From assembly GCA_036002405.1 (NCBI GenBank), contig DASYTK010000041.1, forward strand, positions 1-51,473: DNA of 51,473 bases, read 5' to 3'. Positions within the stretch are counted from its first letter, which is position 1; every line of letters starts with the position of its first letter. The translations under genes and the position numbers were made by a program. The notes beneath the pieces are model-generated. The model saw nothing but the letters and a program-made list of their open reading frames with translations, searched no databases and had not been told where the DNA came from. The stretch is from Candidatus Limnocylindrales bacterium. GTDB lineage: Bacteria > Chloroflexota > Limnocylindria > Limnocylindrales > CSP1-4. This document shows positions 1,424-24,618 of the stretch, piece by piece.

Positions 1424-1606
1424 CTACTTCTTTGACCTCGACCTCGAGCGTGAGGACTTCGTCTCGCCCTTCTCGGAGCGCTCCTTGTTGACCGTTCGGG
1501 CGGCGCGCTCCTTGGCCTCTTCGGTGGAGACCCCGCGGTCCTTGTACGACTCCTTGATGTGCTCGTACTGGCGTTCGCGCTTGTCGCTCCAGGCTTCCTG
1601 CGGCAT
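1424..1606 (-). CDS. Small basic hydrophilic protein of the 'KRERQYEHIK...AARTVNKER' family, function unknown
   Basis: Strong SD (AGGAGGT) upstream of the ATG at 1606. Recognisable conserved motif WSDKRERQYEHIKES...AARTVNKER. Confidence 0.8.
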   Translation of the reverse strand: MPQEAWSDKRERQYEHIKESYKDRGVSTEEAKERAARTVNKERSEKGETKSSRSRSRSKK

Positions 1607-1837
1607 TCGATACACCTCCTGTGGCACGAGCGGCGGACGTCAGCTGCCGTCCGTGCATCCCCGAAGGGTCGACCAGGCCGGCTGCCAGCCAGGCCCCTCC
1701 GCCGGGCGCGTCACGTGTCGAACGTGTTACGGGTGCCACGCGGATGCAAGGCTGCGCGGCAGCCACCGTGCCGGGGCGTGACAGCGGGAGCAGAATCCTC
1801 ACCACGTCGGGGGGCGTAGAGGAAGGGAGGCCGCTTC

Positions 1838-2692
1838 ATGCCCACCGTACCGATCGAGAGCTGGCAGGACGCGCTCCTGGCCGCCTGGGCGTCCTTCGTA
1901 GCTGCCATCCCGGCGGTCATCGCCGCCCTGCTGATCCTCCTGATCGGCTGGGTCATCTCGAACATCCTGGCCAGGATCGCGGAAGAAGTCTTCGAGCGGC
2001 TGGGCGCCGACCGGCTGTACGCCGAGCACGGTGGCCAGCAGATCTACGGCGACGCGGGCTGGCGCTTCACCCCGAGCGACGTCGCCGCCACGGTCGTCAA
2101 GTGGGTGATCCGGATCGTCGCCCTCGTTGCGGCCGCGAACGTCCTGGGCCTGACCCAGGTCAGCCTGCTCCTCAACCAGGTGATCCTCTGGATCCCGAAC
2201 CTCGTCGTCGCGGCGATCATCCTGCTCGTCGCCCCGCTGATCGGGCGCTTCCTTCGTGGCCTGATCGAGGTGGGGGCGGGACAGATGGGCTTCTCCAATG
2301 CCCCGTTTCTCGGGCGGATCGCGGAGATCGCCGTGATCGCCTTCGCCGTCGTGATCGCGATCAACCAGATCGGCATCGCGGCGAACCTCGTGAACATCCT
2401 GTTCATCGGGATCGTGGCGGCGATCTCGCTCGCCTTTGGCCTGGCCTTCGGCCTGGGCGGCCGGGACGTGGCCGCCGAGATCACGAGGGGCTGGTATCAA
2501 ACCTCGCGCCAGGCGGCCGACAGGGTCCGCGTCGCGACGAGCGCGGGTGCGGCCGGGGGCAGGGCAGGGCGCGCTTCGGCGACGGCGCCGCGGACGCGCC
2601 GCACGACGCCGGCCTCGAGCCCGGCCAATCAGCCCACGAGCGTCGTCCGCGCGCCTCGGCGCCGCCTTCCCCGGGCACTCCCGCCCGGCTAG
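1838..2692 (+). CDS. Conserved-TM-helix repeat membrane protein (MscS-associated/CmpX-like)
   Basis: Two copies of the IP.[VL]..A.[LI]ILL[IV] helix pattern, and a C-terminal AFGLAFGLGGRD motif. SD GGGAGG precedes the ATG. Confidence 0.8.
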   Translation: MPTVPIESWQDALLAAWASFVAAIPAVIAALLILLIGWVISNILARIAEEVFERLGADRLYAEHGGQQIYGDAGWRFTPSDVAATVVKWVIRIVALVAAANVLGLTQVSLLLNQVILWIPNLVVAAIILLVAPLIGRFLRGLIEVGAGQMGFSNAPFLGRIAEIAVIAFAVVIAINQIGIAANLVNILFIGIVAAISLAFGLAFGLGGRDVAAEITRGWYQTSRQAADRVRVATSAGAAGGRAGRASATAPRTRRTTPASSPANQPTSVVRAPRRRLPRALPPG

Positions 2693-3699
2693 CGGCGGCC
2701 CAGGTTCGCCAGGTCGGTGATCGCCGCCTGGAGCTTCGAGGCGGCCGCCGTGGCGTCCTTCTTCATCTGGTCGAGGCGCGCGACGACCTGGGGGTCGGCT
2801 CCCGAGCCCCCGAAGAAGCGCTTCGCCGTCGCCTCGAGCTCCGTCGGCGTCTTGTCGCGGACCGCCCCGACCTTGGGGTCCACGTAGCCGATCACAGGCC
2901 TGGGCTTGCCCGTCGGCGAGCGCTGGATCGAGGAGACCTCGACCGCCTCGCGCTTGTCGGCCGGGCCGTACCACTCGGCCTCGGCGTTCTCGGTCATCCT
3001 GGTCAGCACGTCGTCCGAGCCCGAGTCGGCGTAGATGACGGTGCCGACCGGGAGGCGCTTGACCTTCTTCGCTGCGCGGATGTTGCCTGAGCCTTCGATC
3101 ATCGAATCGCCTCCAGAAGGACCTCCAGACGGGGCCACGGGCGGATTGCTCATCGCGATGACGAGAGAGGTCTTCGTGCCCCGAGCCTTGACCGCGAAGC
3201 GCTCGAGGGCGTCCTTGATGAGCGTCTTTGGGTAGCGCTTAAAGTCGCGGCACAGGGGGTCCCAGCCGATCAGGTCGTTGCCGGCGTCCTCGAGGCCCAT
3301 CATCGCGTGCCCGAAGGAGCCGCCTCGCTGGCACGTGTGCGGGCCACCACCGATCGGGGTGTAATCGAGCTGCCAGTTCACGGCGTGACCCGCCCGCAGC
3401 AGGCCCACCATCTCGTCGAAGTCGATCCCCATCGGGATCGCCAGCTCCAGTCCGAAGTGGCGCCAGGCCGTGGAGAGATTGCTGAGATTCGTGCCACCCG
3501 AAGTGTCGCCTGACCAGCGCCGCATCTCGGGCGGCGTCACCGCCACCCGGCCGTTCGTCTGGTCGTCAGCGAGCATCGCGCCCACGGCCAGGTTGCAGTT
3601 GAGCCCGTCGAACAGGGTCCCCCAGCGGGTCGTTCCCACCGAGCCGTCGGCGGCGTTGCGATAGAACTGGTTCCGCCGGAGCGGGCGACGCCTAGCCAC
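2689..3699 (-). CDS. Papain-fold C39-like peptidase with a C-terminal unknown domain (endolysin-like architecture)
   Basis: Candidate catalytic Cys (GLNC), His (FGHAM) and Asp (WDP), plus a GGTNL motif. A Pro/Gly linker (PPVAPSGGPSGGDS) follows. No signal peptide. The GTG start at 3699 overlaps the upstream ORF by 8 nt. Confidence 0.7.
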   Translation of the reverse strand: MARRRPLRRNQFYRNAADGSVGTTRWGTLFDGLNCNLAVGAMLADDQTNGRVAVTPPEMRRWSGDTSGGTNLSNLSTAWRHFGLELAIPMGIDFDEMVGLLRAGHAVNWQLDYTPIGGGPHTCQRGGSFGHAMMGLEDAGNDLIGWDPLCRDFKRYPKTLIKDALERFAVKARGTKTSLVIAMSNPPVAPSGGPSGGDSMIEGSGNIRAAKKVKRLPVGTVIYADSGSDDVLTRMTENAEAEWYGPADKREAVEVSSIQRSPTGKPRPVIGYVDPKVGAVRDKTPTELEATAKRFFGGSGADPQVVARLDQMKKDATAAASKLQAAITDLANLGRR

Positions 3700-3898
3700 C
3701 CTCGGGCTCCGGCAGGGTGTCGCCCGGGGCGGGAGTCGGCAGATCGTCGCCCGGGACCGCGCCGGCGTGGACCTTCCGAGGCGGCTCCTCCCCATTGAAG
3801 GGCGGATGCTCGGAGAGCGGACGCTCGTCCCGGGCACAGAGGGGATCGCTCTCCATCCCGGTGTCGGCGTCCTTCCAGACGAACTCGTGCTCGATCAT
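3692..3898 (-). CDS. 68-aa acidic, Pro-rich peptide translationally coupled to the peptidase
   Basis: SD GGAGGG 6 nt before the ATG. Its stop overlaps the peptidase start (GTGGCTAG). Confidence 0.6.
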   Translation of the reverse strand: MIEHEFVWKDADTGMESDPLCARDERPLSEHPPFNGEEPPRKVHAGAVPGDDLPTPAPGDTLPEPEGG

Positions 3899-4056: not shown

Positions 4057-6849
4057 TCAGTCGAGCGGCGGTAGCTCCTGGTCGTACTCGAGCGCGCCTC
4101 GGAAGGGATCGCCGGCGCGCTCGACGCGATCGGGCACGTCCCGGATCGTCCAGCGGTCCGAGCGGAGGTCCGGATCGTCGAGCTCTGCCCAGCCGATCGG
4201 GGCCGAGACGGGCGCGCCCGCGGCGGGCCGCACCGCGTACGGCGCGACGAGCGTCTTGATCTGCGCGTTCTGGGTGTAGTCGAGGCGGATCCGCCCGCGC
4301 CGGGCCGACACCGTCCACTCCCAGGAGACGAGCTCCGGTACGAGCTGCCCCACCGCCCGGGAGAGCTGCTCGACCCAGGCGCTCGTCTCGGCGAACGAGT
4401 AGCGGGGCCGGATCGGGATCCACACCTGGATGCCGCGCCGGCCCGTCGTCTTCGGGTAGGCCCGCAGACCCAGATGCTCGAGCGCGGTCCGGTAGAGGCG
4501 GGCCACCGTGAGGACCCCCTCGAAGGTCGAGCGATCACCCGGGTCGATGTCGACGTAGGCGTAGGTGGGCCGGTCGAGCGCTTCGAGTCGGGCGGTCCAG
4601 GGATGGATCTCGAACGCGGCCGAGTTGGCCAGCCAGGCCATCGTCGCCACCCGGTCGGCGATGAGGTGCGTGTTCGCCTTCCGTTCCTCGGTGTCGACGT
4701 CGGTCTCGGTCCAGCGGCGGAGCCAGCTCGGGGTGTGATCGGGCAGGTCCTTCTGCCAGAAACCGGATCCGAAGGCGCCGTTGGGATAGCGATGGAGGTT
4801 GAGCGGTCGCTCCGCGAGGTAGGGGAGGATGACCGGCGAGATCGTCACGAAGTAGCGGATCAGCTCGCGCTTCGTGATGGGGGGCTCTTTCGTGCCCTCG
4901 CGCGGCGGGAAGAGCTCCTTGTCGAGGTTCGTCAGCGCCAGCCGCTCGCCGCCGATCTCCCACGTTCCGTCCTTCTTCATCGTGTCGAGCGCCTCGAGCT
5001 CGGCCTGGGTGGTGCGGTCCGGCGGGCCCGAGCGCCTCGCCCGCGGCGCCGACCGGCCGGCGCGCCGCGGCTTCTTCTCGGGTTCCGCCCCGGGAGGATC
5101 GCTCTCCCCCCGCCGGCGAGCGCTCGCCGCGGCCCGCTCGGCACTCTTGACCGCAGCGGCCGTCGCGACCGCTCTCTCACGCGTCACCGAGGCGGGATCG
5201 CGACCGACCTCGAGACCCTTGTAGGCGCCCTGGCGCAGGAGCCCGTCGGTCGTCCACTCGCTGAACTCGACGCGAACGACGAGCCGCGGCTCCGTCCAGC
5301 GGGCGTCCTTGATCCGGACCGGCTCGTCGAAGGGTGGGTCGTCGCGGCGGATCGAGTCGAGGCTCTTGACGAGCTCGGCGCGCGTCTTCGTGTCGATGCC
5401 GCTGCCCACCTCGCCCGCGAAGACGAACCGCCCGTCCTCGTGGACGCCCAGGATGAGCGAGCCCAGGTCCTTGTGGCTGCCCTTGCCTGGCACGTAGCCG
5501 GCGACGACGAGCTCCTGCTCGCGGCGGATCTTGATCTTCAGCCAGGAGCGCGACCGCTTGCCCGGCTCGTAGTGGCCCTGACGGAGCTTGGCCACGATCC
5601 CCTCGAGGCCACGCTGACGGGCCACGTCGTGGAAGGCCTCGCCGTCGGCCTCGATGTGCGAGGCGTAGCGGACGAGGTCATGGTCTCGCAGGACACTCCG
5701 GAGCAAGCGCTTCCGCCCCTCGAGCGGTACGTCGAGGAGCGAGCGGCCGTCGAGGTAGAGGAGGTCGAAGACCTCGTAGGCGAGCGGGATCTCCGCCGCC
5801 GCGGCCTCCTTCGGGGGCCGACCCGGTTCGGTCCGTCCGTGTTCCCCGGCCCGAATGCCCGTGCGGTCCTGGAGCAGGCTGAAGTCCGGTCGGCCGTCGC
5901 GGTCGAAGGCGACAACTTCCCCGTCCACGATCGCCTCACGTGCGCGGATCCAGGCCGGTGGCCCGGTCAGGTCGGGAAAATAGCGTCCGGCGTCCTGCTG
6001 ATTGCGGGTCCACAGGCGGAGCCGGCCCTCGCTCACCACCGCCTCGACTCGATAGCCGTCCCACTTCAGCTCGAACAGCCAGTCGGGGTCGCTGAAGGGC
6101 CGGTCGGTGAGCGTCGCCTTCATCGGGGGGACGAAGTCGGGCATCGGCGCCTCGACCGCGCCCGAGAGGTCGATCGCCGCCTGGTCGGCCGGGGCGCTGC
6201 TGTCCCAGAGCACATCGGCTCCGACGGCGACCTGGTCGTTCGTCCGGCCCGTCTTCACGGAATGGGGATGGTCGTCGATGTCCCAGTCCGGGTCGGCGGC
6301 CTCGTCGCGCTTCTTGATCAGCAGCCAGTTCTCCTTGTCGCTCCCCTCGAGCGCACCCGGGCGCGTTCGGACGAGCGTAAAGCGGCCGCCGAGCTTCTCC
6401 CCGTTGAGGCGGAACTTCAGCTCACCGTCGCGGACGGCCCTGGCCGGGTCGTCGGTCTCCTCCGGCTCCCACGTGCCCCAGTCCCAGACGACGACGTCGC
6501 CGCCTCCGTACTCGCCCTTGGGGATCACGCCTTCGAAGTCGAAGTAGTCGAGCGGGTGGTCTTCGACGTGGACGGCCATCCGGCGCTGGCCTGGATCGAG
6601 CGAGGGCCCCTTGGGGATCGCCCAGCTCACGAGGACGCCGTCGATCTCGAGCCTGAAGTCGTAGTGGAGCCTGGTCGCGCGGTGGCGCTGGACGACGAAA
6701 CGCCGATCCCCGCTCGGAGGCCGCACGGCACGACCAGCCGGGCCGGTCGCTCGCTTCGTCGGGCGCCGGCGCGTCCTTCCCCGCCCTTCACCCGACGGCT
6801 CGGGGGTCTTCGTGAAATCCCGCTTGCGGCGGTATCGCTCGAGGCTCAT
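4057..6849 (-). CDS. ligD: NHEJ DNA ligase D (phosphoesterase - ATP-dependent ligase - AEP polymerase)
   Basis: PE domain HRATRLHYDFRLE...SWAIPKGP...EDHP. Ligase motifs ELKWDGYR, DGEVV, FDLL, EGIVAK. Polymerase motifs VDIDP, KTTGRRG, RLDYTQN. Confidence 0.96.
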   Translation of the reverse strand: MSLERYRRKRDFTKTPEPSGEGRGRTRRRPTKRATGPAGRAVRPPSGDRRFVVQRHRATRLHYDFRLEIDGVLVSWAIPKGPSLDPGQRRMAVHVEDHPLDYFDFEGVIPKGEYGGGDVVVWDWGTWEPEETDDPARAVRDGELKFRLNGEKLGGRFTLVRTRPGALEGSDKENWLLIKKRDEAADPDWDIDDHPHSVKTGRTNDQVAVGADVLWDSSAPADQAAIDLSGAVEAPMPDFVPPMKATLTDRPFSDPDWLFELKWDGYRVEAVVSEGRLRLWTRNQQDAGRYFPDLTGPPAWIRAREAIVDGEVVAFDRDGRPDFSLLQDRTGIRAGEHGRTEPGRPPKEAAAAEIPLAYEVFDLLYLDGRSLLDVPLEGRKRLLRSVLRDHDLVRYASHIEADGEAFHDVARQRGLEGIVAKLRQGHYEPGKRSRSWLKIKIRREQELVVAGYVPGKGSHKDLGSLILGVHEDGRFVFAGEVGSGIDTKTRAELVKSLDSIRRDDPPFDEPVRIKDARWTEPRLVVRVEFSEWTTDGLLRQGAYKGLEVGRDPASVTRERAVATAAAVKSAERAAASARRRGESDPPGAEPEKKPRRAGRSAPRARRSGPPDRTTQAELEALDTMKKDGTWEIGGERLALTNLDKELFPPREGTKEPPITKRELIRYFVTISPVILPYLAERPLNLHRYPNGAFGSGFWQKDLPDHTPSWLRRWTETDVDTEERKANTHLIADRVATMAWLANSAAFEIHPWTARLEALDRPTYAYVDIDPGDRSTFEGVLTVARLYRTALEHLGLRAYPKTTGRRGIQVWIPIRPRYSFAETSAWVEQLSRAVGQLVPELVSWEWTVSARRGRIRLDYTQNAQIKTLVAPYAVRPAAGAPVSAPIGWAELDDPDLRSDRWTIRDVPDRVERAGDPFRGALEYDQELPPLD

Positions 6850-6895: not shown

Positions 6896-7192
6896 CTAGC
6901 GGTTCTGGCCCGCCTCGCGGACGTCGTCGTCGGTCGCCTTCGGGCCCTCGCGGTGGCCGGACGGTTCCTCACGCCGCTCCACCCGATGCGCCGCGGCGCC
7001 CTCGCCGCTCGACCTCGTGGCCGAGGCGGCGACCCGTTCGTCCTTCGGCCCCACGCCGCCGGGGATCGTGTCGGCGGCCCATTCGGGCTCATGGCCGACG
7101 TAGGCGCCCGGGTCGGCCCGGGGCTCGCCGCCTTCCTCCCCTTCCTCGCGATCCTCTCGGTCCCCCTGCGGTTCGACTCGTTCGTCCGTCAT
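6896..7192 (-). CDS. Small acidic hydrophilic protein, first gene of a probable operon with ligD
   Basis: SD AGGAGG with a short spacer before the ATG at 7192. E/D/G/R-rich with no hydrophobic segment. Ends 46 nt upstream of ligD. Confidence 0.7.
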   Translation of the reverse strand: MTDERVEPQGDREDREEGEEGGEPRADPGAYVGHEPEWAADTIPGGVGPKDERVAASATRSSGEGAAAHRVERREEPSGHREGPKATDDDVREAGQNR

Positions 7193-7262
7193 CGATTCAT
7201 CCTCCTGCGTCACAGCCTGCTGTTCGACCCGATGCCATCACGGTCTCCCTTCCGACGCCCAT

Positions 7263-7319
7263 CTTGCAGCCTGCTTGCGACCGCCACGGTCGCCGACCCG
7301 GGCGTTACGGAGCTGCAAG
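7263..7319. promoter_or_regulatory. Back-to-back TGCAAG direct-repeat boxes in a divergent intergenic region
   Basis: Minus strand GTCGCAAG-cag-GCTGCAAG (7281-7263). Plus strand GGCGTTAC-gga-GCTGCAAG (7301-7319). Related boxes recur at other promoters in the window (see findings). Confidence 0.5.
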
Positions 7320-7372
7320 CGTGGGCGTGGGATATTTGCTGAACAGACCGCAGCGGGGGGCAGGAGGACCGG

Positions 7373-7678
7373 ATGCCGGAGCTCGATGCCAGGGACCGGG
7401 ACAAGCTCAGGAAGAGCCAGTTCGCCTACGTCGACAAGCAGGGCGAGGGTCATCTTCCGATCAACGACGAGTCCCACGTCCGCAATGCGATGGCCCGCTT
7501 CAACCAGACCGAGTTCGAGAGCGCGGCGGCCAAGGAGCGAGCGCGCAAGAAGATCCTCTCGGCAGCGAAGAAGCACGGCATCGAGGTGGATCCGAGCGAC
7601 AAGATCGCCAGGCCGGCCAGGGGTCTTCGGGCCGCGAGCACGAAGGCAGGCCCGCGGGGCGGCCGAAAGACCGGCTGA
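7373..7678 (+). CDS. Small conserved protein (DUF6582-like)
   Basis: The pattern RDKL..SQFAY...HLPINDESHVRNAMARFNQT...A.KKILSAAKKHGIEV resembles that family as I recall it. SD AGGAGG present. Confidence 0.7.
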   Translation: MPELDARDRDKLRKSQFAYVDKQGEGHLPINDESHVRNAMARFNQTEFESAAAKERARKKILSAAKKHGIEVDPSDKIARPARGLRAASTKAGPRGGRKTG

Positions 7679-7690: not shown

Positions 7691-8155
7691 CTACAGCAGC
7701 GAGCGCTCTTCGGGCCAGGTCATCGTCAGGAGGGCCGCGCTCTCCTCCCGCGCCTCGATCGACCAGGCGCGGCCGGAATCCAGGACGGCGAGCTCGCCCG
7801 CCACGAGCTCCATCCCCTCGCCGTCGCGTGAGACCTCCACGGCTCCCTCCACGATCTCGACCGTCAGCCGGCCGTGGGCCATCTCCTCTCCGATCCGCGC
7901 GCCGGGCCGGAGGGCGGCCAGCACGACCCGAAGATCCGGCTCCTTGGCCAGGGTGACGGCGTTCCGATCCCCCGCCCGGTAGGCCGGCTCGTCCCGCAGG
8001 CGCTCCAGCTCGGACGCGATCCCGACCACGACGACCGGGGCGATCAGCTCGCGCGGCTCCCGGTCGTCGCTGCCGCTCGTGTGCTCGGGCGGACGCGGCT
8101 GGGTTGTCGCTTCGCGGTCCATGCGCTCGTCCGCCGCCCCATGTCCCCGGTCCAT
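7691..8155 (-). CDS. Cupin-domain protein
   Basis: LAKEPDLRVVLAALRPGARI...HGRLTVEIVEGAVEV...L.AGELAVL is a cupin barrel pattern. TATCCT lies 6 nt upstream of the ATG at 8155 (leaderless). Confidence 0.8.
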   Translation of the reverse strand: MDRGHGAADERMDREATTQPRPPEHTSGSDDREPRELIAPVVVVGIASELERLRDEPAYRAGDRNAVTLAKEPDLRVVLAALRPGARIGEEMAHGRLTVEIVEGAVEVSRDGEGMELVAGELAVLDSGRAWSIEAREESAALLTMTWPEERSLL

Positions 8156-8262
8156 CGGACGAGGATAGCGCCGGCCACCGGGCTCGGCTCGTTGACGCGT
8201 CCCGTTTGGCGGCGCTAGGCTGCCCCGGCCTCCGCTTCACGGTCACATGCGATGGAGGAGCG

Positions 8263-9183: not shown

Positions 9184-9411
9184 CTAGTACTGCTTGTCGG
9201 AGACCTGCGGATCCGGGTATGTCCGGTCGCCGCCCTCGCGCACGTCGTCACCGAGGTTGCCGAGGTCCTTGCGGGCCTCGTCCCCGATGTTCCCGACGTG
9301 GTCGGCGAGGTCCGTGCCGTCAGCCGCGCGGCTCGTCTCGGCGACGCCCTGTTCGGCCTCGCGATAGGTCTTCTTGAGGTCGTCGCGAATGGTGTCCTTG
9401 TCGTCGTCCAT
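9184..9411 (-). CDS. Small acidic hydrophilin-like protein
   Basis: 75 aa and D/E-rich (MDDDKDTIRDDLKK...). A purine-rich SD-like stretch lies upstream. Divergent from the kinase. Confidence 0.7.
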   Translation of the reverse strand: MDDDKDTIRDDLKKTYREAEQGVAETSRAADGTDLADHVGNIGDEARKDLGNLGDDVREGGDRTYPDPQVSDKQY

Positions 9412-15676: not shown

Positions 15677-18316
15677 TCAGGGCCTCCCGCCGCCCCCGCC
15701 GTGGCCGCCGCCCCCGCCTCCAGAGGGGGATGGCTCCCCATCGGGCGAGGGTGAGGGCTTGTCCTTCTTCTTCGGCTTGGGCGGCGGCGGGCACGGCCCG
15801 TAGATCGGGCCGCCCCAGCTCGACAGGCCGAAGAAGTAAGCCGTGGCGCTTCCGTAATGGCCCACCACCCCGGCGCCCCGGCGTGCCCGAGCCGCCCAGT
15901 CGCTCACGGCGTCCCTCCACTGCTCGCGCGGCTCGGCTTTCAACGGGTGGACCTGCCAGGTGCCGCAATTGAAGGTGTAGAGGAGGCCCCCCGGGTCGAC
16001 AGCCCTGCCCCCGCCGGGCTGCGTGCCGGCGATGAACAGCTCGTTGACGACATCGCGCGTCCAGGGGCCCGGAGGACCACCCGACCAGGCGTCGATCCTC
16101 GCCTGGACGAGGCCGTCGGGACGCGGAAAGTCGGCCACGGGCCAGCCCTGGGTGAAATCCCGGAGGAAGGCGTGCCAGACCCGTGCCGGGCCATCGGAGG
16201 CGAAGGTGGGCTCGTCGCCGAGGGGCTGGGTGTAGTCGCTGTTGCCCATCCAGACCCCGACCGCGAGCGCGGGGTGCTGCTGGTCGGCCGGAGGGGCGAT
16301 GTAGCCGTAGGCGGACAGGTCGCGCGTGTCGTTCGTCGTGCCGGTTTTCACGGCCGCCGGGCGGCGCTCGCCGTTCGGGCCGTTGTCGAGTTTGAACAGG
16401 GGACCCCAGATGAGGTTCTCGGCGGGATTCGTGTTGCCCTTCAGGATGTCGGTGACGAGGTAGGCGGACTGGGCGCCGATCGCTCGGGTGGCGGCCGGTT
16501 GGCCCGCCTGGTAGACGAGGTTCCCGTGCGTGTCCCGGACCTCGAGGATCATCCGCGGCGGGACGCGCATCCCGCCGTTGCCGAGCGTCCCGTATGCCGA
16601 GACGAGGTCGAGCAGCCGCACCTCGACGGTGCCGATCGCCCCCGCCAGGCCCGAACGGAGGAACTGGAGCTCGCCACCCCGGAAGGTGATCCCGAGCGCC
16701 TCGGCCTGCCGCGCGACCGCCTCGTTGCCGACCCGGTCGATGGCCCGGATGGCCGGGATGTTCAGCGAATACTGGAGCGCCTTGCGGACCCGCACCGGGC
16801 CGCGCTCGCGCAGGTCGGCGTCGCGAGGCGCCCAGGCTCGCCCCGTCCGTGAGTCGCGCCCGAACTGGGTCGTGACGTCGAGGAGGAGGCTGCCCGGAGT
16901 CAGGCGCTGGGTCTCGAAGGCGGTGGCATAGACGATCGGCTTCCAGGCCGAGCCGGGCTGGCGGAAGCCCACCCCGGCGACGTCGTATTTCGGGTCGAGC
17001 TTGCGGCTGTCGGTGCGCCGGTAATAGCCGGCGCTGCCGGCATAGGCGACGACGTCTCCGGTGCGGTAATCGACGGCGGCCATCGCGGCGTTGTGGACGT
17101 CCCGGCCGCGGAGCCGCGTCAGCCAGTCGCGATCACGCTCGATCCCGAATCGACGGATGGCAGCCTGCATCTCGTCGCCCGACAGGTTGGGCAGGACGGC
17201 CGCCGCGTAGACGTAGCGCTCGGCCAGCTTCTGGGCCTCGTAGTCGAGCGTGGTGATCACCCGGTAGCCGCCCGTCTCGACCGGTTCGCGATCGGCCACG
17301 ATCCCGTCGAGCTGCCGCTTCACTTGCCAGGTGAAGTGCGGGGCCCGGAAGATCAGCGGCCGCTCACCGGCCAGGACGATCGGCTCCTCGAGGGCCGCCC
17401 TGAGCTCGGAGGCCGAAAGCTTCGTCCAGCGTTCGCCCTGGCGGAGGCCGCTCAGGACGTAGTCCCGCCGGAGGACCGGCGGAGCGTCGCGCGGGACGAC
17501 GAGCCGGGTCACGGTCTCCCCGTCCACGACCTCCGTTTCCTCGACGGCGTAGCGATAGGGATCCAGGGTGCTGGGCGACTTCGGCAGCCCGGCCAGGAGG
17601 GCGGCCTGGGAGACGCTCAACTTCGACAGGTCCGAGATCCCGAAATAGACCGAGGCGGCCGCAGCGACGCCGTAGGCCTGATGTCCGTAATAAATCTGGT
17701 TGAGGTAGGCGGTGACGATCCGGACCTTTCCCGGCTCGCCCGGGAACTTCTCGGTCAGGCGGGCTGCCTGGAGGAGCTCCTTCGCCTTGCGCAGGTAGCG
17801 GTCCGCGCCCGGCTCGAGATACTTCCCGGGGAGGAGCCGGGCCCGGACGAGCTGCTGGGTGATCGTCGATGCCCCGCGCTCCCCTTCGCCCGCCGCCCCC
17901 TCGAGGATGGCCGAGCCGATCGCCGCCGGGTCGAAACCCTCGTTCTGCCAGAAGGTCCGGTCCTCGGCCGCGGTCGTGGCGTCGATCACGAGCTTGGGGA
18001 CGTCCTCGAAGGAGACGACCCGGCGTTCCTCGCGCTGGAAGCGTCCCAGCTCCACCGTGCCGGTGCGGTCGTAGACGATCGTCGGCTCGGCGAAGTCGAG
18101 ATCCTCGAGGATCGCGGGATCGGGAAGGTCTGCCTGGAGCTCGTCGAGGGCATGGAGCGCCGCGCTCGAGAGCACCGTCCCGCTCACCAGGAAAAGCGCG
18201 ACGACCCCGACGATCGTCGTCGTGGCGACCATCGGGAGCAGTCCGTGACCGTTCTTGGGCTTCGGGCGGAGCAGCCGGCCCCGCGCGAGGGCCACCCGCC
18301 GGAGATTGGCGCTCAT
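15677..18316 (-). CDS. Class A penicillin-binding protein (transglycosylase + transpeptidase)
   Basis: GT51 motifs AEDRTF, GASTITQQL, RKAKE, YLNQIYYG. Transpeptidase motifs SAWK, SLN, KTGT. N-terminal TM. Exact start uncertain. Confidence 0.94.
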   Translation of the reverse strand: MSANLRRVALARGRLLRPKPKNGHGLLPMVATTTIVGVVALFLVSGTVLSSAALHALDELQADLPDPAILEDLDFAEPTIVYDRTGTVELGRFQREERRVVSFEDVPKLVIDATTAAEDRTFWQNEGFDPAAIGSAILEGAAGEGERGASTITQQLVRARLLPGKYLEPGADRYLRKAKELLQAARLTEKFPGEPGKVRIVTAYLNQIYYGHQAYGVAAAASVYFGISDLSKLSVSQAALLAGLPKSPSTLDPYRYAVEETEVVDGETVTRLVVPRDAPPVLRRDYVLSGLRQGERWTKLSASELRAALEEPIVLAGERPLIFRAPHFTWQVKRQLDGIVADREPVETGGYRVITTLDYEAQKLAERYVYAAAVLPNLSGDEMQAAIRRFGIERDRDWLTRLRGRDVHNAAMAAVDYRTGDVVAYAGSAGYYRRTDSRKLDPKYDVAGVGFRQPGSAWKPIVYATAFETQRLTPGSLLLDVTTQFGRDSRTGRAWAPRDADLRERGPVRVRKALQYSLNIPAIRAIDRVGNEAVARQAEALGITFRGGELQFLRSGLAGAIGTVEVRLLDLVSAYGTLGNGGMRVPPRMILEVRDTHGNLVYQAGQPAATRAIGAQSAYLVTDILKGNTNPAENLIWGPLFKLDNGPNGERRPAAVKTGTTNDTRDLSAYGYIAPPADQQHPALAVGVWMGNSDYTQPLGDEPTFASDGPARVWHAFLRDFTQGWPVADFPRPDGLVQARIDAWSGGPPGPWTRDVVNELFIAGTQPGGGRAVDPGGLLYTFNCGTWQVHPLKAEPREQWRDAVSDWAARARRGAGVVGHYGSATAYFFGLSSWGGPIYGPCPPPPKPKKKDKPSPSPDGEPSPSGGGGGGHGGGGGRP

Positions 18317-18811
18317 CCGCGGGGGCGCCGATGAGAGGCGGTGGCGGCGCGCGACGGGCCGATAGCTCACGACGAGATGGTGCACCAAGCCCGGGATGAC
18401 CGCATCAGCGCCCTGCCGGTCTCCGCCGAGGCGTCCCTTTACTGGAAGCGGGCAGGGTCAGGCTAGGGGCGCCTCCCCAGCCTCCGATGAGCACCGGGGG
18501 TGACCTCCGCTTGCAAGCGTCTTGCAGCCCTGTCCCGGGTCGATGGGACCGATGGGCCACCGGCCGTGGTCAATCCGTCGGGTTTGCCGCTCGGGCCGGC
18601 TGGCATACTGTCCCTTGGCCGACAGGACCTGACGAGCAGAAGGACGACAACCGAACACACCGCCGTCGCCGGCAGGCTCGTGCCTGTCGCTCCGATGCGT
18701 CGCGTCGTTCGTCGTGTCGCGTCTCTCCTCTCTCCGCGCTGCCGGGCGGCCGGTGCCATCCAGCGTCGTCGCGCCCTTGGGCGCGGCGTCTGGCAGGAAG
18801 GAGGTCGGCTG

Positions 18812-19663
18812 TTGCCGGTGTCCCTGTCCGGCGCCCAGCGGGCGTCTCGTCGGCTCCGTCACCTGGGACTCATCGCTCTCGTCGTGAACCTCGTGCTTGT
18901 GGGGCTCGCCGCGCAGCCAGGCGTGGTGCGCGCAGCCGCGCCGAAGGTCGTCCTCATCGTCGGCCCCGTCGAGTCGCAGACCTCTGCCTACATCGACGCC
19001 GCCAACCGGCTTGCCAGCCGGGCCGCGAAATATGGCGCGACCGTGGTGAAGATCTACAGCCCGTATGCCACGTGGGGCACCGTCCTCAACAAGGCGCAGG
19101 GCGCGAACCTGCTGATCTACCTGGGCCACGGCAACGGCTGGCCGAGCCCTTACGCGCCCTATCAGCCCTACACGAAGGACGGCCTGGGCCTGAACGCGTC
19201 ATGGGGCGACGGCAATTCGAACACGAAGTACTGGGGCGAGTATTACGTCGCCCGTGATCTCCACCTCGCGCCGAACGCCGTCGTCCTCCTCCACCGGCTC
19301 TGCTATGCGAGCGGCAACTCGGAGTGGGGCTCCGCGGCGCCGACGAAGAGCGTCGGGATGGAGCGCGTCGACAACTTCGGGGCGGGCTTCCTCCGGACCG
19401 GGGCCCGTGCCGTCTTCGCCGAGGGGATCACCGATATGGCACCGCTGATCGACGGGCTCTTCACCACGAAGAGCTACATGAAGGACATCTTCCTGTCTTC
19501 GCCGTCGGCGCATCCCGAGTCCACGAACATCTGGTTCGGGAGCGAGCGTACGCCCGGGAAGCGGGCGGTCATGGACCCCGACTACTCCAAGCCGGGCAAG
19601 TACTACCGCTCGCTCGTGGGCGACACGCTGATGCGTGCCTCGGAGTGGCGCGCGGGCGGCTGA
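18812..19663 (+). CDS. Secreted protein with a caspase/gingipain-like (clan CD) His-Gly/Cys dyad pattern
   Basis: SD AGGAAGGAGGT before the TTG at 18812. Signal peptide (RRLRHLGLIALVVNLVLVGLAAQPGVVRA). LIYLGHG, and VVLLHRLC with Cys 58 residues after His. Confidence 0.7.
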   Translation: MPVSLSGAQRASRRLRHLGLIALVVNLVLVGLAAQPGVVRAAAPKVVLIVGPVESQTSAYIDAANRLASRAAKYGATVVKIYSPYATWGTVLNKAQGANLLIYLGHGNGWPSPYAPYQPYTKDGLGLNASWGDGNSNTKYWGEYYVARDLHLAPNAVVLLHRLCYASGNSEWGSAAPTKSVGMERVDNFGAGFLRTGARAVFAEGITDMAPLIDGLFTTKSYMKDIFLSSPSAHPESTNIWFGSERTPGKRAVMDPDYSKPGKYYRSLVGDTLMRASEWRAGG

Positions 19664-19702: not shown

Positions 19703-19739
19703 GCGAGGCCCGGGCGATGCCCGGGCCTCGCTTCCTGTT
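19703..19739 (+). terminator. Intrinsic terminator
   Basis: Perfect 13-bp stem GCGAGGCCCGGGC-GAT-GCCCGGGCCTCGC followed by TTCCTGTT, 40 nt after the stop. Confidence 0.8.
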
Positions 19740-19840
19740 CGCAACGGCTTCGCAAGTGCCCCCTCGATGCGCCTCGCTGCCGCTGCAAGCGTCGCGCGCC
19801 CACCCTTCGGCGCAGCCCGTCCGCAGCCCCGGAGGTCCCG

Positions 19841-20866
19841 GTGACCGACTCGAAACGCTCGTCGCCACCTCCGGCACCGATGAGCATTCGCCCGATCCCG
19901 ACCGACTCGCCGATCGTCCTCCAGGAGGTGACGCGCGCGTTCGCCCAGGTTCGAGCGATCGATGCGATCTCGCTCGCGGTGCCCAGGGGGACGATCCTGG
20001 GTCTCATCGGGCCAAGCGGCTCGGGTAAGACGACGACGATCCGGACGCTGACCGGCGCGCTCGCGCCGACGAGCGGGATCGTCCGCGTCCTGGGGGAGGA
20101 TCCGCGCCGCTTCCATCGGCGGACCCGCGAGCGGATCGGTTACTCACCGCAGGACTTCGTCCTCTACCAGGACCTGACCGCGCGCGAGAACGTCGATTTC
20201 ATGGGCTCGCTCTTCGGGATGCTCTGGCGGCGCAGGCGGCGGCGGGTCCGCGAGGCGCTCGAGCTGGTCGGCCTCTGGGAGGCGCGGGATCGGCGGGCCT
20301 CCCAGCTTTCGGGAGGGATGCGCCGGCGGCTGGAGCTGGCCTGCGCACTCGTCCACGATCCGGAGGTCCTCTTCCTCGACGAGCCCACCGCCGGGATCGA
20401 TCCGATCCTCCGCCAGACGGTCTGGCAGGAGCTGCGCCGGCTGCGGGACGAGGGCCGCACTCTCCTCGTGACGACCCAGTACGTCGCGGAGGCCGAACAC
20501 TGCGACGCCGTTGCGCTGCTCTCCCACGGGCGGCTCATCGCGCTTGCCCGACCGGAGGACCTGCGACGCCAGGCGCTCGGCGGCGACGTCATCGAGGTCG
20601 AGGTCGATCGCCCCTTCGACGCCCGGTCGCTGGCCGGCGTGGAGGGCGTCACCGCCGTCCGCCAGCGCGACCCTCGGAGCGTTCTCGTCGTGGCCGAGAA
20701 TGCGGGCATGGTGACGCCGCGGGTCGTCGACGCGATCGATTCGCTCGGTGCCGACGTGGTCTCGAGCCGCGAGTACCGCCCGACCTTCGACGAGGTCTTC
20801 GCCGAGCTCGTGAGCCGGGATCGGCTGGCTCGAGGACTCGCCCCGGACGACGCCGAGGCCGCCTGA
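19841..20866 (+). CDS. ABC-2-type exporter ATP-binding subunit
   Basis: Walker A GPSGSGKT, signature LSGGM, Walker B LFLDEP, C-terminal regulatory domain. Confidence 0.95.
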   Translation: MTDSKRSSPPPAPMSIRPIPTDSPIVLQEVTRAFAQVRAIDAISLAVPRGTILGLIGPSGSGKTTTIRTLTGALAPTSGIVRVLGEDPRRFHRRTRERIGYSPQDFVLYQDLTARENVDFMGSLFGMLWRRRRRRVREALELVGLWEARDRRASQLSGGMRRRLELACALVHDPEVLFLDEPTAGIDPILRQTVWQELRRLRDEGRTLLVTTQYVAEAEHCDAVALLSHGRLIALARPEDLRRQALGGDVIEVEVDRPFDARSLAGVEGVTAVRQRDPRSVLVVAENAGMVTPRVVDAIDSLGADVVSSREYRPTFDEVFAELVSRDRLARGLAPDDAEAA

Positions 20867-20869: not shown

Positions 20870-22069
20870 ATGCTCTTCGGCCCACTGAAGAGCTTCACCC
20901 GGGTCCTCTCGTTTACGCGGAAGGAGCTCCTCGAGGTCGTCCGGCGGCCAGGCGCCTTCTTCGGGCTTGTGCTCGGACCGTTCCTGATCATGGCGATCTT
21001 CGGGATCGGCTACAGCGGCCTGCGTCGGCCGCTCGAGACCGTGCTCGTCTTGCCGCCCGAATCGGGCCTCAGCCAGGAGGCGAGCGCCTACCAGGAGCTG
21101 GCCGGTCCGGCGGTCCACGTGCGCGAGGTCACCGCCGACGCGGACCTCGCCGAGGAGCAGCTCCAGCGCGAAGAGGTCGACCTCGTCGTCATCGCCCCAG
21201 CGGACGTGCGGCAGCGCTTCGTGAATGGCCGGCAGGCCGAGATCCGCGTCCTGTACAACGAGATCGATCCGCTGCTCTCGAACTACGCGGCCTTCGTCGC
21301 CTACCGTCTCCAGCAGGAGGTCAACCGGGCGATCCTCACGCGCGCCGTCGAGGCAGGGCAGGAATACGTCGTCCGTGCGACTGGGAGTGACAAGGCCCGG
21401 GCGATCCCGGCCGAGGTCGTCGCCCAGCCGACCCGGGCCGATACGGTCAACATCGCCCAGACGCCCCCCGCCGTGGTGACCTTCTTCATGCCCGCGGTGC
21501 TTGCGCTCGTCCTCCAGCACATGGCCGTGACGCTCACCTCGCTGTCTCTCGTTCGCGAGCGGTTGAGCGGGGCGATGGAGCTCTTCCGCGTCTCGCCGGT
21601 CGGGGTGGTCGAGATCCTGCTGGGCAAGTACCTCGCGTTCGGGATCCTGACCGCCCTGCTCGGTGGGTTGGTCACCGCGGTCGGGGTGCTGCTGCTCCAG
21701 GTGCCTCTCCTGAGCTCGCCCTGGTTCCTCGTGGCGGTCTCTGGGCTCCTGGTGCTGGCCTCGCTCGGCCTCGGGCTACTGATCTCGGCCGTCGCCGACT
21801 CGGAACGGCAGGCCGTGCAGCTCTCGCTGCTCGTCCTCCTCGCCTCCGTCTTCTTCAGCGGCCTCGTCCTCCCGATCGGCGAGTTCCACGAGCTCGTCCG
21901 GGCGGCGGCCCACCTGCTTCCCGTCACGGCCGGGATCCGGCTCCTCCAGGATGCGATGCTGCGCGGCGGCACCTACGCCGGCTATCTCATCGGAGTGCTC
22001 CTCGTGATCACCCTCGTGTACTTCCTGCTGACGGCGATCCTCCTCCGGCGACAGATGGCCCGGGCCTGA
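20870..22069 (+). CDS. ABC-2-type exporter permease
   Basis: One N-terminal TM, an extracytoplasmic loop and five C-terminal TMs. Motifs RKELLEVVRRP, RERLSGAMELFRVSP, LPVTAGIRLLQDAMLRG. Confidence 0.92.
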   Translation: MLFGPLKSFTRVLSFTRKELLEVVRRPGAFFGLVLGPFLIMAIFGIGYSGLRRPLETVLVLPPESGLSQEASAYQELAGPAVHVREVTADADLAEEQLQREEVDLVVIAPADVRQRFVNGRQAEIRVLYNEIDPLLSNYAAFVAYRLQQEVNRAILTRAVEAGQEYVVRATGSDKARAIPAEVVAQPTRADTVNIAQTPPAVVTFFMPAVLALVLQHMAVTLTSLSLVRERLSGAMELFRVSPVGVVEILLGKYLAFGILTALLGGLVTAVGVLLLQVPLLSSPWFLVAVSGLLVLASLGLGLLISAVADSERQAVQLSLLVLLASVFFSGLVLPIGEFHELVRAAAHLLPVTAGIRLLQDAMLRGGTYAGYLIGVLLVITLVYFLLTAILLRRQMARA

Positions 22070-22074: not shown

Positions 22075-22812
22075 ATGTCCTTCGACGAGCCACGCATCGT
22101 CCTGCCCGACGTGCCCGGGGCGGAAGCGATCATCGAGGGACGCCGCCCGGGCCGGGCGAGCCGCCGGATCCTGGGCCTGCTGCTGACCGCCTACGGGATC
22201 CTCGGCTTCGTCGTCTTCGTCGCCGGCGCGATCCTCGTCGCCGAGCCGCTCGACCGCCTGGCCCACGCGACCACGGAGCTGGAGGACCAGCGGGTGCTGC
22301 TCGCCGACTCGCTCCGGACGACCTCGACCGCGCTCGACGACGCGGCACAGGGCCTGACGGGCTTCGACGAGAGCATCGACCTGGCACGTGGTTCGTCCGA
22401 GCGGGCGGCCGGTCTCTCCCGCGATGTGGCGGCGACGATGGCCGAGGTCGCCCGCTCGATGCGGCAGATCCAGATCTTCGGTCAGACCCCGCTGGCCCAG
22501 CTGGCGGCCGGGTTCGAGCGCGCGGACGGCCAGCTTCGCCAGCTCGGGGACGACCTCGACGGGATCGGCTCATCGCTGAACCAGAACGCCTCCGACGCGC
22601 GGACGACCCGCGACGGGATCGTCCGGCTCCAGGCCCAGATCGACCTGCTCGCCGAGGCGGTCGAGTCGACGAGCCTGGGGGGGATCGGCGGCGCGGCGAT
22701 CGAGCAGCTTCGCCTGGCGATCATCCTCATCTCGAGCTGGCTCGCGCTGCTCGCCCTGGGAAGCTTCCTGACCGGGCTCTATCTCCTCCGGCCGCGCCGC
22801 GGCGCGCTGTAA
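22075..22812 (+). CDS. Membrane protein with two terminal TMs flanking a long helical region, third gene of the ABC operon
   Basis: Hydrophobic segments at both ends and a heptad-like Ala/Leu/Asp-rich middle. 5-nt gap to the permease. Confidence 0.75.
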   Translation: MSFDEPRIVLPDVPGAEAIIEGRRPGRASRRILGLLLTAYGILGFVVFVAGAILVAEPLDRLAHATTELEDQRVLLADSLRTTSTALDDAAQGLTGFDESIDLARGSSERAAGLSRDVAATMAEVARSMRQIQIFGQTPLAQLAAGFERADGQLRQLGDDLDGIGSSLNQNASDARTTRDGIVRLQAQIDLLAEAVESTSLGGIGGAAIEQLRLAIILISSWLALLALGSFLTGLYLLRPRRGAL

Positions 22813-22836: not shown

Positions 22837-23706
22837 TCAGGCCGCGGAGCGGCGTGCGCTCCGGCGATCGCGGCTGCGACCCCCGGAGGTCGCCGCCTTC
22901 CGGCGCCGGCTCGAGCGCCCTGATGGCGCGGCGCCCCCCTTCGACGACTTCAGGCTCGCCTCGAGCGCCTCCATCAGGTCGACGACCTTGGGCTGGGGCC
23001 GGCGACGCTTCAGGTTCTTCAGCTCGCCCTTCATCTTTCGCTCGATCAGCTCCTGGAGCGCGACCCGGTAGCGGTCCGTGTACTCCTCGGGACGGAAGCG
23101 GTCGGAGAGGTTCTCGACGAGTGAGCGGGCCATCCGGACCTCCTTCTCGGACGGTCGGGCGGTCCGGCTCTGGGGCAGATCGAGCGAGTCGGTGGGGCGG
23201 ATCTCGTCCGGCCAGTACATCGTCTCGAGGAGGAGCGTCCCATCGAAGACACGGACCGTGGCCAGGCGTTCCTTGGTCCGGATCGCGACCTTGGCAAGCG
23301 CCACGCGGCCGGTCTCCTCGAGTGCCTGGCGAAGCAGGTTGAAGGGCTTCGCCCCGACCTCGACAGGCTCGAGGAAGTAGCTCTTCTCGAAGTAGATCGG
23401 ATCGATCTCGTTGAGCTCGACGAAGTCGCCGATGTCGATCGTGTGGGTCGTCTCGGGCCCGAACTCCTCGATCTCCTCCGGGTCGAGCACGACGTACTCT
23501 CCCTTCGCAACCTCGTAGCCCCGGGCGAGATCCTCCCAGGCGACCTCCTTGTCCTCGGCCGAGCAGAAGCGCTTCTCCACGATCGGCGCGCCGTCTTTCT
23601 TGTGGAGAAGCCGGAAGCGGACGTCCTTCTGCTCGGTCGCCGCATAGAGCTTCACCGGGATGGTGACCATCCCGAAGCTGATCGCGCCGCGCCAGATCGC
23701 CCTCAT
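22837..23706 (-). CDS. ku: NHEJ Ku protein
   Basis: MRAIWRGAISFGMVTIPVKLYAA, YEVAKGEYV, IDPIYFEKSYFL, DRYR, VVDLMEALEASL, basic C-terminal tail. Confidence 0.97.
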   Translation of the reverse strand: MRAIWRGAISFGMVTIPVKLYAATEQKDVRFRLLHKKDGAPIVEKRFCSAEDKEVAWEDLARGYEVAKGEYVVLDPEEIEEFGPETTHTIDIGDFVELNEIDPIYFEKSYFLEPVEVGAKPFNLLRQALEETGRVALAKVAIRTKERLATVRVFDGTLLLETMYWPDEIRPTDSLDLPQSRTARPSEKEVRMARSLVENLSDRFRPEEYTDRYRVALQELIERKMKGELKNLKRRRPQPKVVDLMEALEASLKSSKGGAAPSGRSSRRRKAATSGGRSRDRRSARRSAA

Positions 23707-23758
23707 CGAGCGGTGCTCCGGCTCAGCCTCGCGGTGTGGGACAGGCGGGACCCGTGCG

Positions 23759-24067
23759 TCACGCCCAGTCGTCTTCGGCGCGCCGCGTCGTGGCCGAGCG
23801 AGCGCCACCGGCAACGATGGCCACCACGGCGACGACCGCCAGGACGAGCAGGAGGAGGATCGGCCGGTTGTCCCGCCGCTGGCCCGGGCGGAGCCGACGG
23901 ATCTCGTTGCCGAGGTCCTTGCTGAGCTCGCTCAGGGTCTCCGTGATCGCCTCGCTGAGGTCCTCGGCCATGCGGCCGGCGTCCTTCGCCGCCTCCTTCG
24001 CGGCCTCCTTTGCGGTGCGCCCGGCGTCCTTGGCGGCGTCCTTTGCGATCTCCTTCACGTCGGTCAT
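23759..24067 (-). CDS. Small protein with AKDAA/AKEAA repeats and a C-terminal TM, first gene of a probable operon with ku
   Basis: SD AAGGAGG. KEIAKDAAKDAGRTAKEAAKEAAKDAGR is LEA-like. Hydrophobic ILLLLVLAVVAVVAIVAG. Confidence 0.75.
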   Translation of the reverse strand: MTDVKEIAKDAAKDAGRTAKEAAKEAAKDAGRMAEDLSEAITETLSELSKDLGNEIRRLRPGQRRDNRPILLLLVLAVVAVVAIVAGGARSATTRRAEDDWA

Positions 24068-24618
24068 GCCGATGAGCCTCCTTCGGATGTCGTTGGGTGA
24101 GTATCCCTGCCCGCCGCTCGCAGGCCATGCCCGCGGCCGCCCGGGCGGCTTGCAGCGTCGTGACGGTGCGTGCTCCTCCGGCCGTCGCCTGCCCGGAGCG
24201 GAGCGGGATCGACCGGAGGCGTGGGGCAGGCCGGGTCGTGTGGCTCGCGCGCTCCGACCAGGCGCGCCAGGCGGTCGCGCTGAGCGGCGAGGACGTCGTA
24301 GCCGATCTCGGCCAGGCCGGTCGCCTCGGCGAGCCGGAACCACGGTCCCAGGAGGTGCCCACCGGGCAGAGCCTCGAGCGCCGCGAGCATCGCCCGGCCG
24401 CCGGCGACGACCTCGCCCCCATTCGTCACGGCATGGATCCGTTCGACGAGCGGATATCCCGCGGCGACCGCCGCCAGATCCGGGCGGACCCCGCCGCGTC
24501 GCGCCTCCTGGAGGGGCACGAGCGCGATCCGTCGGCGTCGGTCGAGGGACCGCAGCTGGAGGGCCGTCCAGGTGCAGAAGGCGCAGTCGCGATCGTAAAG
24601 GAGCGTCAGCGCTGCCAT
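24064..24618 (-). CDS. DCC1-like thiol-disulfide oxidoreductase (DUF393) with a long C-terminal extension
   Basis: LLYDRDCAFC (DxxCxxC), IHAVT...GGRAMLAAL, GYDVLAAQRDRL. The last ~60 aa are low-complexity. Confidence 0.8.
   Translation of the reverse strand: MAALTLLYDRDCAFCTWTALQLRSLDRRRRIALVPLQEARRGGVRPDLAAVAAGYPLVERIHAVTNGGEVVAGGRAMLAALEALPGGHLLGPWFRLAEATGLAEIGYDVLAAQRDRLARLVGAREPHDPACPTPPVDPAPLRAGDGRRSTHRHDAASRPGGRGHGLRAAGRDTHPTTSEGGSSA

Follow-up and report, generated by a model that had tools for sequence, protein, structure and literature searches.

A TGCAAG direct-repeat box at fixed distances from predicted stress and DNA-repair promoters of Limnocylindrales, and its association with a KdpE-like response regulator

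We analyzed a 51.5-kb stretch of DNA (contig DASYTK010000041.1 of a Candidatus Limnocylindrales bacterium, a metagenome-assembled Chloroflexota genome from soil; hereafter the window, whose numbering is used for all coordinates) from an assembly of 46 contigs and 1,015,961 bp that is ~54% complete. Genes were called by Pfam scans and by reading of the open reading frames (ORFs). The window carries genes for LigD, Ku, a hydrophilin, a class A penicillin-binding protein (PBP) and an ABC-2 exporter, together with an adjacent pair of genes for a soluble histidine kinase and an OmpR/PhoB-family response regulator (Table 1). The subject of this report is a short element with the hexamer TGCAAG, here called the box, that lies upstream of genes between 1.7 and 24.2 kb. 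The preliminary description of this DNA had listed eight sites, each written as two octamers three nucleotides apart, and an extra GCTGCAAG at 19782; all were present at the positions and on the strands reported. The distance from box to start codon, given there as roughly 50-110 nt for most sites, was found to be 50-122 nt, and the gene list of non-homologous end joining (NHEJ), hydrophilin, membrane and export functions was correct for this genome.

An exhaustive scan of the window yielded exactly five copies of GCTGCAAG, the number previously counted by eye, compared to 0.92 expected, and none of 100 shuffled sequences reached five. All five lay between 7.2 and 24.2 kb. The entire 1,015,961-bp assembly held 11 copies, 5 of them within these 17 kb (binomial P ~6e-7). 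The bare hexamer TGCAAG showed no numerical excess in the window (9 copies vs 6.5 expected); seven of the nine were intergenic and a single one was in clearly coding DNA, the remaining copy lying at the tail end of the DCC1-like ORF. A position matrix was trained exclusively on sites of other genomes and run on the full assembly. Its top six hits were all non-coding and all inside the window at 1.7-24.2 kb (clustering P ~6e-9), with box 1 as the second-best hit. A relaxed matrix, with the window left out of its training, ranked the weaker sites at 9521, 13648 and 19756 in the top 12, box 4 being its second-best hit. With iteration, the training set of the relaxed matrix drifted to 273 sites, and at low thresholds the reversed sequence gave as many hits as the real sequence; the top-ranked hits alone were used. 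Another stress motif, GTCATGAC, occurred in this assembly solely in apparently coding contexts, as judged by eye on unmasked sequence.

The box is 19 bp long and consists of a degenerate distal yGmmAs and a strong proximal cTGCAAG, separated by 5 nt and forming a direct repeat with an 11-bp period. Mean half-site likeness was profiled over 31 promoter-associated sites, drawn from 27 genomes. At offset -11 it stood 7.4 SD above all other offsets, in agreement with the 8-3-8 form described earlier, and it had no peak at -22, +11, +22 or +33. Because of this single peak, each box was assigned exactly two repeat units. When 58 TGCAAG sites from the regulator neighbourhoods of 17 genomes were aligned, G was enriched at -10 (37/58, P ~9e-6) and A at -7 (27/58, P ~6e-8), which points to a second unit, 11 bp upstream, that resembles TGCAAG in degenerate form. 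Perfect TGCAAG-N5-TGCAAG tandems were found in the related genomes G002 (twice), G005, G016 and G023, the last with three units of which the third is TGCAAT, and a TGCAAG-N5-TGCAAT tandem was found at locus L061. The G005 tandem is made of palindromic CTTGCAAG units and serves divergent promoters. Additional degenerate repeats between the box and the -10, which would be a sign of oligomerisation, were looked for and none were found.

A pattern of this kind might arise by chance, as a compositional artefact or from a dispersed repeat of the REP or MITE kind. The bare hexamer is not over-represented in the window, and its excess in crudely masked non-coding DNA was weak, just 2.3-fold against a mononucleotide model, with most of the signal coming from uncalled coding sequence. 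Sequence similarity stops at the 19 bp of the box, which excludes a dispersed repeat; a repeat search found no repeat family covering the sites. The hits of the independent matrix, the peak at -11 and the coupling to -10 hexamers described below exclude chance, and the clustering and the conservation across genomes also speak against it. We regard an origin of this kind as barely conceivable.

The boxes also stand at fixed distances from -10-like hexamers, an observation that goes beyond the preliminary description. The geometry was measured on 99 TGCAAG sites; they come from 540 kb of sequence surrounding the regulator orthologues in 27 genomes. The hexamer TANNNT started at offset 43 or 44 in 14 of the 99 sites and at offset 54 or 55 in 8, compared to a mean of 0.37 per offset (P ~1e-13), and SANNNT was found at offset 43 in 15 cases vs 1.9 expected (P ~2e-9). 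In the window, all eight promoters have an nAnnnT hexamer at offset 43-45 or 11. The box-to--10 distances of 11, 43-44 and 54-55 nt differ by multiples of 11, so that a bound protein would always be on the same face of the helix, and the box is placed to contact RNA polymerase, either as a -35 replacement or phased upstream of the predicted -10. A conserved -35 was searched for in the aligned promoters and none was found, just a weak G at -16 and A at -13. In class-I promoters of the 27 genomes aligned on the -10 and counted from its first base, these were present in 23/31 and 13/31, respectively, and may represent an extra contact with polymerase or activator. A purine-rich position 8 nt after the -10 is also weakly conserved in the same aligned promoters and may be the transcription start site. 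A sigma-70 consensus scan of the window's intergenic regions found no full promoter. The strict pattern TGCAAG-N43/44-TANNNT was rejected as frequency evidence: it was not commoner than a reversed-pattern control, because GAACGT is the commoner hexamer, and its hits are informative only by their position relative to the regulator gene.

This geometry bears on the idea that an alternative stress sigma factor recognises TGCAAG as part of the promoter, for example as an unusual -35 or upstream element. The gene content resembles the sigma-B, RpoS and EcfG regulons, and the distance from box to -10-like hexamer is fixed. However, the distances are 43-44, 54-55 and 11 nt, compared to 16-18 nt for a sigma-bound -35. 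No conserved element stands 16-18 nt before a specialised -10; the -10 is of the ordinary TAnnnT type, and the element itself is a tandem direct repeat. The spacings exclude a sigma-factor element for practical purposes, and we consider it very improbable.

The promoters of the window show two arrangements (Table 1), and at the exporter promoter both are combined, boxes 7a and 7b sharing one -10-like hexamer at 44 and 11 nt. Box 4 has a nearly palindromic proximal half (GTTGCAAT), which on the minus strand is 45 nt away from TACCGT. On the plus strand its distance is 46 nt to TATAGT, read from the sequence as the likely -10 of the kinase-regulator operon, and this single site may serve both divergent promoters, like the palindromic CTTGCAAG tandem of G005. 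Box 6 has a palindromic CTTGCAAG (18510-18517) that also reads toward the divergent secreted-protein gene. On that side no -10-like hexamer was found at a canonical offset, and CATACT is 86 nt away.

Table 1. Genes, boxes and other features of the window between the integrase and DCC1-like genes, with predicted -10 hexamers. Offsets run from the end of the proximal half-site to the -10.
Feature	Position	Strand	Sequence or domains	Remarks
Integrase (tyrosine recombinase, phage integrase family)	87-1136	-
tRNA-Gln(CTG)	1194-1268	-
Box 1	1732-1750	+	GGTGCCAC-gcg-GATGCAAG	AATCCT 1794-1799, 43 nt downstream; precedes 1838-2692
Mechanosensitive-channel-like protein	1838-2692	+	Pfam MS_channel_1st_1
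ORF	2689-3837	-	no Pfam match
LigD	4057-6849	-	Pfam domains
Acidic 98-aa protein	6896-7192	-
Box 2	7263-7281	-	GTCGCAAG-cag-GCTGCAAG	CAGGCT 7214-7219, offset 43; precedes 6896-7192 and LigD; genes down to 2689 may be in the same transcription unit
Box 3	7301-7319	+	GGCGTTAC-gga-GCTGCAAG	GATATT 7331-7336, 11 nt downstream, pho-box-like geometry; precedes 7373-7678
DUF6582 protein	7373-7678	+	Pfam DUF6582
Cupin	7691-8155	-		perhaps also driven from box 4
ORF	8215-8892			perhaps also driven from box 4
GxAGD-type hydrophilin, 76 aa	9184-9414	-
Box 4	9521-9539	-	CATGAAAG-gcg-ATTGCAAC	TACCGT 9470-9475, offset 45; precedes 9184-9414
TATAGT	9575-9580	+		likely -10 of the kinase-regulator operon
Soluble PAS/GAF histidine kinase	9606-12575	+	Pfam HisKA, HATPase_c	Pfam hits on ORF 9417-12575
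OmpR/PhoB-family (KdpE-like) response regulator	12572-13321	+	Pfam Response_reg, Trans_reg_C
Hairpin	13346-13378		13-bp GC-rich, strong, then CTTTCGTT	between regulator stop (13321) and end of 40-aa ORF (13429)
40-aa ORF	13429-13551	-		conserved in G002
Box 5 (weakest site)	13648-13666	-	CCTGCAAC-gag-GATGTTAG	TACGGT 13598-13603, offset 44; precedes 13429-13551
ORF	13702-14235			possible member of the box 6 unit
GH1	14290-15741	-		perhaps also driven from box 6
Class A PBP	15677-18388	-
Box 6 (best site)	18510-18528	-	GCTGCAAG-acg-CTTGCAAG	TAGCCT 18460-18465, offset 44; precedes 15677-18388
Secreted protein	18812-19663			divergent from box 6
Box 7a	19738-19756	+	TTCGCAAC-ggc-TTCGCAAG	ends 44 nt upstream of CACCCT 19801-19806
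Box 7b	19771-19789	+	GCCTCGCT-gcc-GCTGCAAG	ends 11 nt upstream of CACCCT 19801-19806; precedes exporter operon
ABC-2 exporter, ATPase	19841-20866	+
ABC-2 exporter, permease	20870-22069	+
ABC-2 exporter, DUF948-like	22075-22812	+
Ku	22837-23706	-
LEA-like tail-anchored protein	23759-24066	-
Box 8	24149-24167	-	ACCGTCAC-gac-GCTGCAAG	GATACT 24100-24105, offset 43; precedes LEA-like and Ku genes
DCC1-like protein	24064-24615	-

The boxes are conserved in front of orthologous genes; with the enrichment and clustering and the clear 11-bp structure, all the sequence-based checks proposed earlier came out in favour of the box. Contig G002:C58 shares synteny with the window over the LigD-Ku stretch, and its boxes precede the orthologous LigD operon and the DUF6582, hydrophilin, PBP, ABC and Ku units at the same offsets; the genome G054 also keeps boxes ahead of orthologous genes. 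The G002 counterpart of box 2 is CCCGAAAG-acc-CCTGCAAG with GAGCCT at offset 43, and the side matching box 3 has CGCAAG-N5-CGCAAG. Ahead of the orthologous ABC genes, CCTGCAAG stands 10-11 nt before GATAGT and GACCCT in G002 and G054, and the BON-domain gene that lies upstream of Ku in G002 has AACGAAAG-gcc-CCTGCAAG before it. Hydrophilin orthologues have a box and a TACGGT-type -10 in nearly all genomes with the family. On G002:C58 at ~23.4-24.7 kb (L052), a tandem GCTGCAAG-acg-GCTGCAAG, near-identical to box 6, was observed before a type IB topoisomerase (TopIB) gene. Such a gene is absent from the window, and the G002 PBP gene has a separate box of its own.

On another contig of the same assembly, a box (GTGGTGGAATACCGCTGCAAC, C40:49997-50017) with CATCAT at offset 44 precedes a gene for a 179-aa, GmhB-type HAD-like protein (C40:50104-50640). 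Tandem boxes also precede the orthologous genes of G016, G002 and G015, with offsets of 43, 44 and 12, and the boxed gene on a second contig suggests that the regulon reaches beyond the cluster. A weaker candidate box (TGACCGCAAGCCCCCTGAGAT) was observed at C18:18342-18362, with TAGACT 44 nt downstream, before a gene for a 238-aa Ala/Gly-rich LEA- or apolipoprotein-like protein. In other genomes, the genes downstream of boxes encode Dps/ferritin, BON-domain, GlsB/YeaQ/YmgE, TopIB, YdaD-type SDR, DUF1684, LEA-like tail-anchored and GxAGD-type hydrophilin proteins, and a YGGT-like protein immediately 3' of the regulator. This content is a typical general stress response set. Ku and LigD were under the box only in this genus, in G002 and perhaps in G054; NHEJ is a lineage-specific addition to the wider set. 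The genome has two Ku genes, one in the window and one at C40:26920-27696. Close orthologues of the window Ku (~70% identity) were found only in G002 and G054, and the C40 Ku, ~40-45% identical to it, is the family-wide copy.

The 249-aa regulator encoded between the boxed genes has an N-terminal receiver domain (Response_reg, E 1.3e-31) and a C-terminal winged-helix domain (Trans_reg_C, E 2.9e-19). Its closest solved structures, KdpE, PhoP, RegX3 and MtrA, matched over the full length, and KdpE (4KFC, 4KNY) was the best sequence match among them (E 3e-51). The phospho-acceptor pocket is intact in the translation (D11, D12, D55, T82 and K104). The recognition-helix region is KdpE-like (WGPEYRDDLQYLRVWVSRVRRKL); an argument on specificity from its alignment was dropped, the region being too conserved. 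The stop of the kinase gene and the start of the regulator gene overlap at 12572-12575, an arrangement kept in G002, whose syntenic kinase orthologue is 54% identical. The kinase is soluble and has PAS and GAF domains, which suggests an intracellular signal. Of 40 other family genomes searched, 24 had a regulator orthologue with 79-95% identity, which makes 25 of 41 with this one. Distant homologues (<=67% identity) in Dehalococcoidia and Anaerolineae had no box clusters. By Pfam scans, no protein of the window cluster other than the regulator has a recognised DNA-binding domain. OmpR/PhoB regulators bind head-to-tail on two 11-nt direct repeat units (PMC4415409).

Box and regulator gene are associated by position. 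In regulator-positive genomes, 14 of 44 strict boxes with TANNNT were within 20 kb of the regulator gene, compared to ~0.6 expected (P ~4e-15), and in at least 10 genomes in which the regulator has its own promoter, tandem boxes stand immediately upstream of its gene, the usual signature of autoregulation. They are also associated by presence: the hydrophilin family was found in 17/25 regulator-positive vs 1/16 regulator-negative genomes (P ~1e-4), and the HAD-like family in 9/25 vs 0/16. The sole regulator-negative hydrophilin copy (G056) has no box. The link is a strong association as judged from the genomes compared, and from it we infer that the box is probably the dimer site of the resident KdpE-like regulator, in a two-component general stress or desiccation regulon with possible autoregulation. 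The control by the resident kinase and regulator that had been suggested earlier thus holds as a strong association, through proximity, co-occurrence and upstream tandems. "General stress or desiccation" fits the gene content better than the label "dormancy" attached to it.

Several points weigh against control by the resident regulator. In the window, no clearly oriented box precedes the kinase-regulator operon itself; the one candidate is the near-palindromic half-site, whose 46 nt to the -10 is not a canonical distance. Common descent of the regulator-positive genomes may account for part of the co-occurrence, as the statistics ignore phylogenetic dependence. In the regulator-positive genomes G021, G014 and G008, few or no exact TGCAAG copies were found near the regulator. 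Genome-wide counts of GCTGCAAG in 24 relatives did not separate regulator-positive from regulator-negative genomes; such raw octamer counts are uninformative because GCTGCAAG is rare throughout the family. The -10 hexamers are predicted from position and pattern, and the sequence was present only in soil DNA metagenomes and in no RNA runs. Finally, complete family genomes encode ~20-40 OmpR-type paralogues, so that a different paralogue could read the box.

If another factor such as a paralogous OmpR-type regulator did so, the resident pair would be a mere member of the regulon. The many paralogues allow this, G016 even has a second regulator, 50% identical, beside the orthologue, and boxes before the regulator gene equally fit control by another factor. 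In contrast, the regulator orthologue is the constant neighbour of the boxes amid otherwise variable gene content, target families are lost along with it, 11-bp direct repeats suit its protein family, and the Pfam scans of the window cluster found no DNA-binding domain besides that of the regulator. On balance we think a different reader of the box unlikely.

The resident regulator might also bind the box mainly as a repressor or roadblock. OmpR-family proteins can both activate and repress, and the class-II-like sites at 7301-7319 and 19771-19789 overlap the -35/spacer region, where bound proteins can repress. However, the end of most sites is 43-44 nt before the -10, which puts them outside the core promoter and always on one face of the helix, and promoters that have no -35 and a fixed upstream site are typical of activator dependence. 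Repression as the main mode appears decidedly unlikely.

For the resident regulator acting as an activator, the following mechanism may be proposed. The soluble PAS/GAF kinase would phosphorylate the regulator on an intracellular signal, and one head-to-tail regulator dimer would bind the 19-bp box. Where the proximal half-site ends 43-44 nt upstream of the -10, the dimer would be at about -75 to -57 in a class-I-like position; where it ends 11 nt upstream, the dimer would be at about -42 to -24 and replace the -35 as PhoB does. The bound dimer would activate promoters with a TAnnnT-type -10 and no recognisable -35, and eight such promoters would drive nearly all genes from 1.7 to 24.2 kb. The predicted regulon of the window comprises a second NHEJ set (LigD and Ku), hydrophilins, and the LEA-like, DUF6582, mechanosensitive-channel-like, class A PBP and ABC-2 exporter genes, with at least one additional member outside the cluster, the HAD-like gene on contig C40. 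In Limnocylindrales at large, the box would place Dps, BON, GlsB/YeaQ, TopIB, SDR and YGGT-like genes and the regulator itself under this control.

The proposed system resembles PhoB-PhoR with the E. coli pho box and Streptomyces PhoP, which likewise have an OmpR/PhoB winged-helix regulator and an adjacent kinase, and whose sites likewise consist of two direct units with an 11-nt period bound head-to-tail (PMC4415409). The boxes at 7301-7319 and 19771-19789 are pho-box-like in ending 11 nt before the -10, in the place of the -35. The pho box itself was reportedly placed by Makino and colleagues, in 1988, 10 nt upstream of the -10, replacing the -35. In contrast to the Pho systems, the half-site here is TGCAAG, not CTGTCAT or GTTCACC, most sites are a single dimer site 33 bp further upstream, the sensor is a soluble PAS/GAF kinase and not PhoR with the Pst system, and NHEJ, hydrophilin, PBP and ABC-2 genes stand in the regulon where phosphate genes (pst, phoA), absent here, would be expected. 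E. coli KdpE also binds two direct half-sites; unlike Kdp, the cluster has no kdp genes (kdpFABC) and no KdpD-type kinase, its targets are stress and repair genes, and its site is GC-rich where that of KdpE is AT-rich. M. tuberculosis MprA, another OmpR-family protein, is said by He and Zahrt, writing in 2005, to bind two loosely conserved 8-bp direct repeats 3 nt apart, and MprAB is reportedly autoregulated and tied to stress and persistence. MprB differs in being a membrane sensor of envelope stress, sigma factors and chaperones are at the centre of the MprAB regulon, and its sequences bear no relation to those here.

DosRST (DevRST) is similar in its GAF-domain kinases and in a compact regulon for dormancy or stress, part of which is grouped near the regulator. 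DosR is a NarL/LuxR-type protein on a palindrome, whereas the regulator here is OmpR-type on a direct repeat, so that the two differ in the protein family that defines them and resemble each other in function only. With the sigma-B (Bacillus), RpoS (E. coli) and EcfG-PhyR (Alphaproteobacteria) responses the cluster and its relatives share Dps, GlsB/YeaQ/YmgE, BON/OsmY-like, YdaD-type SDR and small hydrophilin proteins. As with ykoUV under sigma-G in Bacillus, the predicted targets also include DNA repair genes for non-growing cells. Unlike these sigma-driven responses, control here is apparently exerted by an upstream-bound activator at ordinary -10 promoters, with no replacement sigma.

Limnocylindria and their relatives are abundant in soil; to our knowledge they have no cultured, genetically tractable member, and we know of nothing on how their survival of drying or starvation is regulated. 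A literature search found nothing on Limnocylindria regulators, nor on general stress responses of Chloroflexota under two-component control. The regulon, the box and its rigid geometry appear undescribed; the mechanism, an OmpR-type dimer on direct repeats, is of a known and ordinary kind. The finding gives a cis-element, a candidate regulator-kinase pair and a target list (hydrophilins, LEA-like, Dps, BON and GlsB proteins, with NHEJ in some genera), and it is a clean example of candidate two-component control of Ku/LigD. The rigid promoter geometry also helps promoter annotation in high-GC metagenome-assembled genomes of Chloroflexota. As a tentative proposal that we think quite possible, the stress or desiccation response of Limnocylindria would be run by a PAS/GAF kinase and a KdpE-like activator instead of an alternative sigma factor, with a single dimer site whose distance from -10-only promoters is rigid, either 43-44 or 11 nt; some genera would have recruited the second Ku-LigD set and TopIB, so that a two-component signal would switch on break repair in non-growing cells.

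At the left end of the window, the integrase gene abuts the 3' end of the tRNA-Gln(CTG) gene. An integrated element, if any, would possibly run leftward beyond the window, with the stress cluster on the other side of the tRNA. Within the cluster, the hairpin between the regulator gene and the convergent 40-aa ORF is likely a bidirectional terminator.

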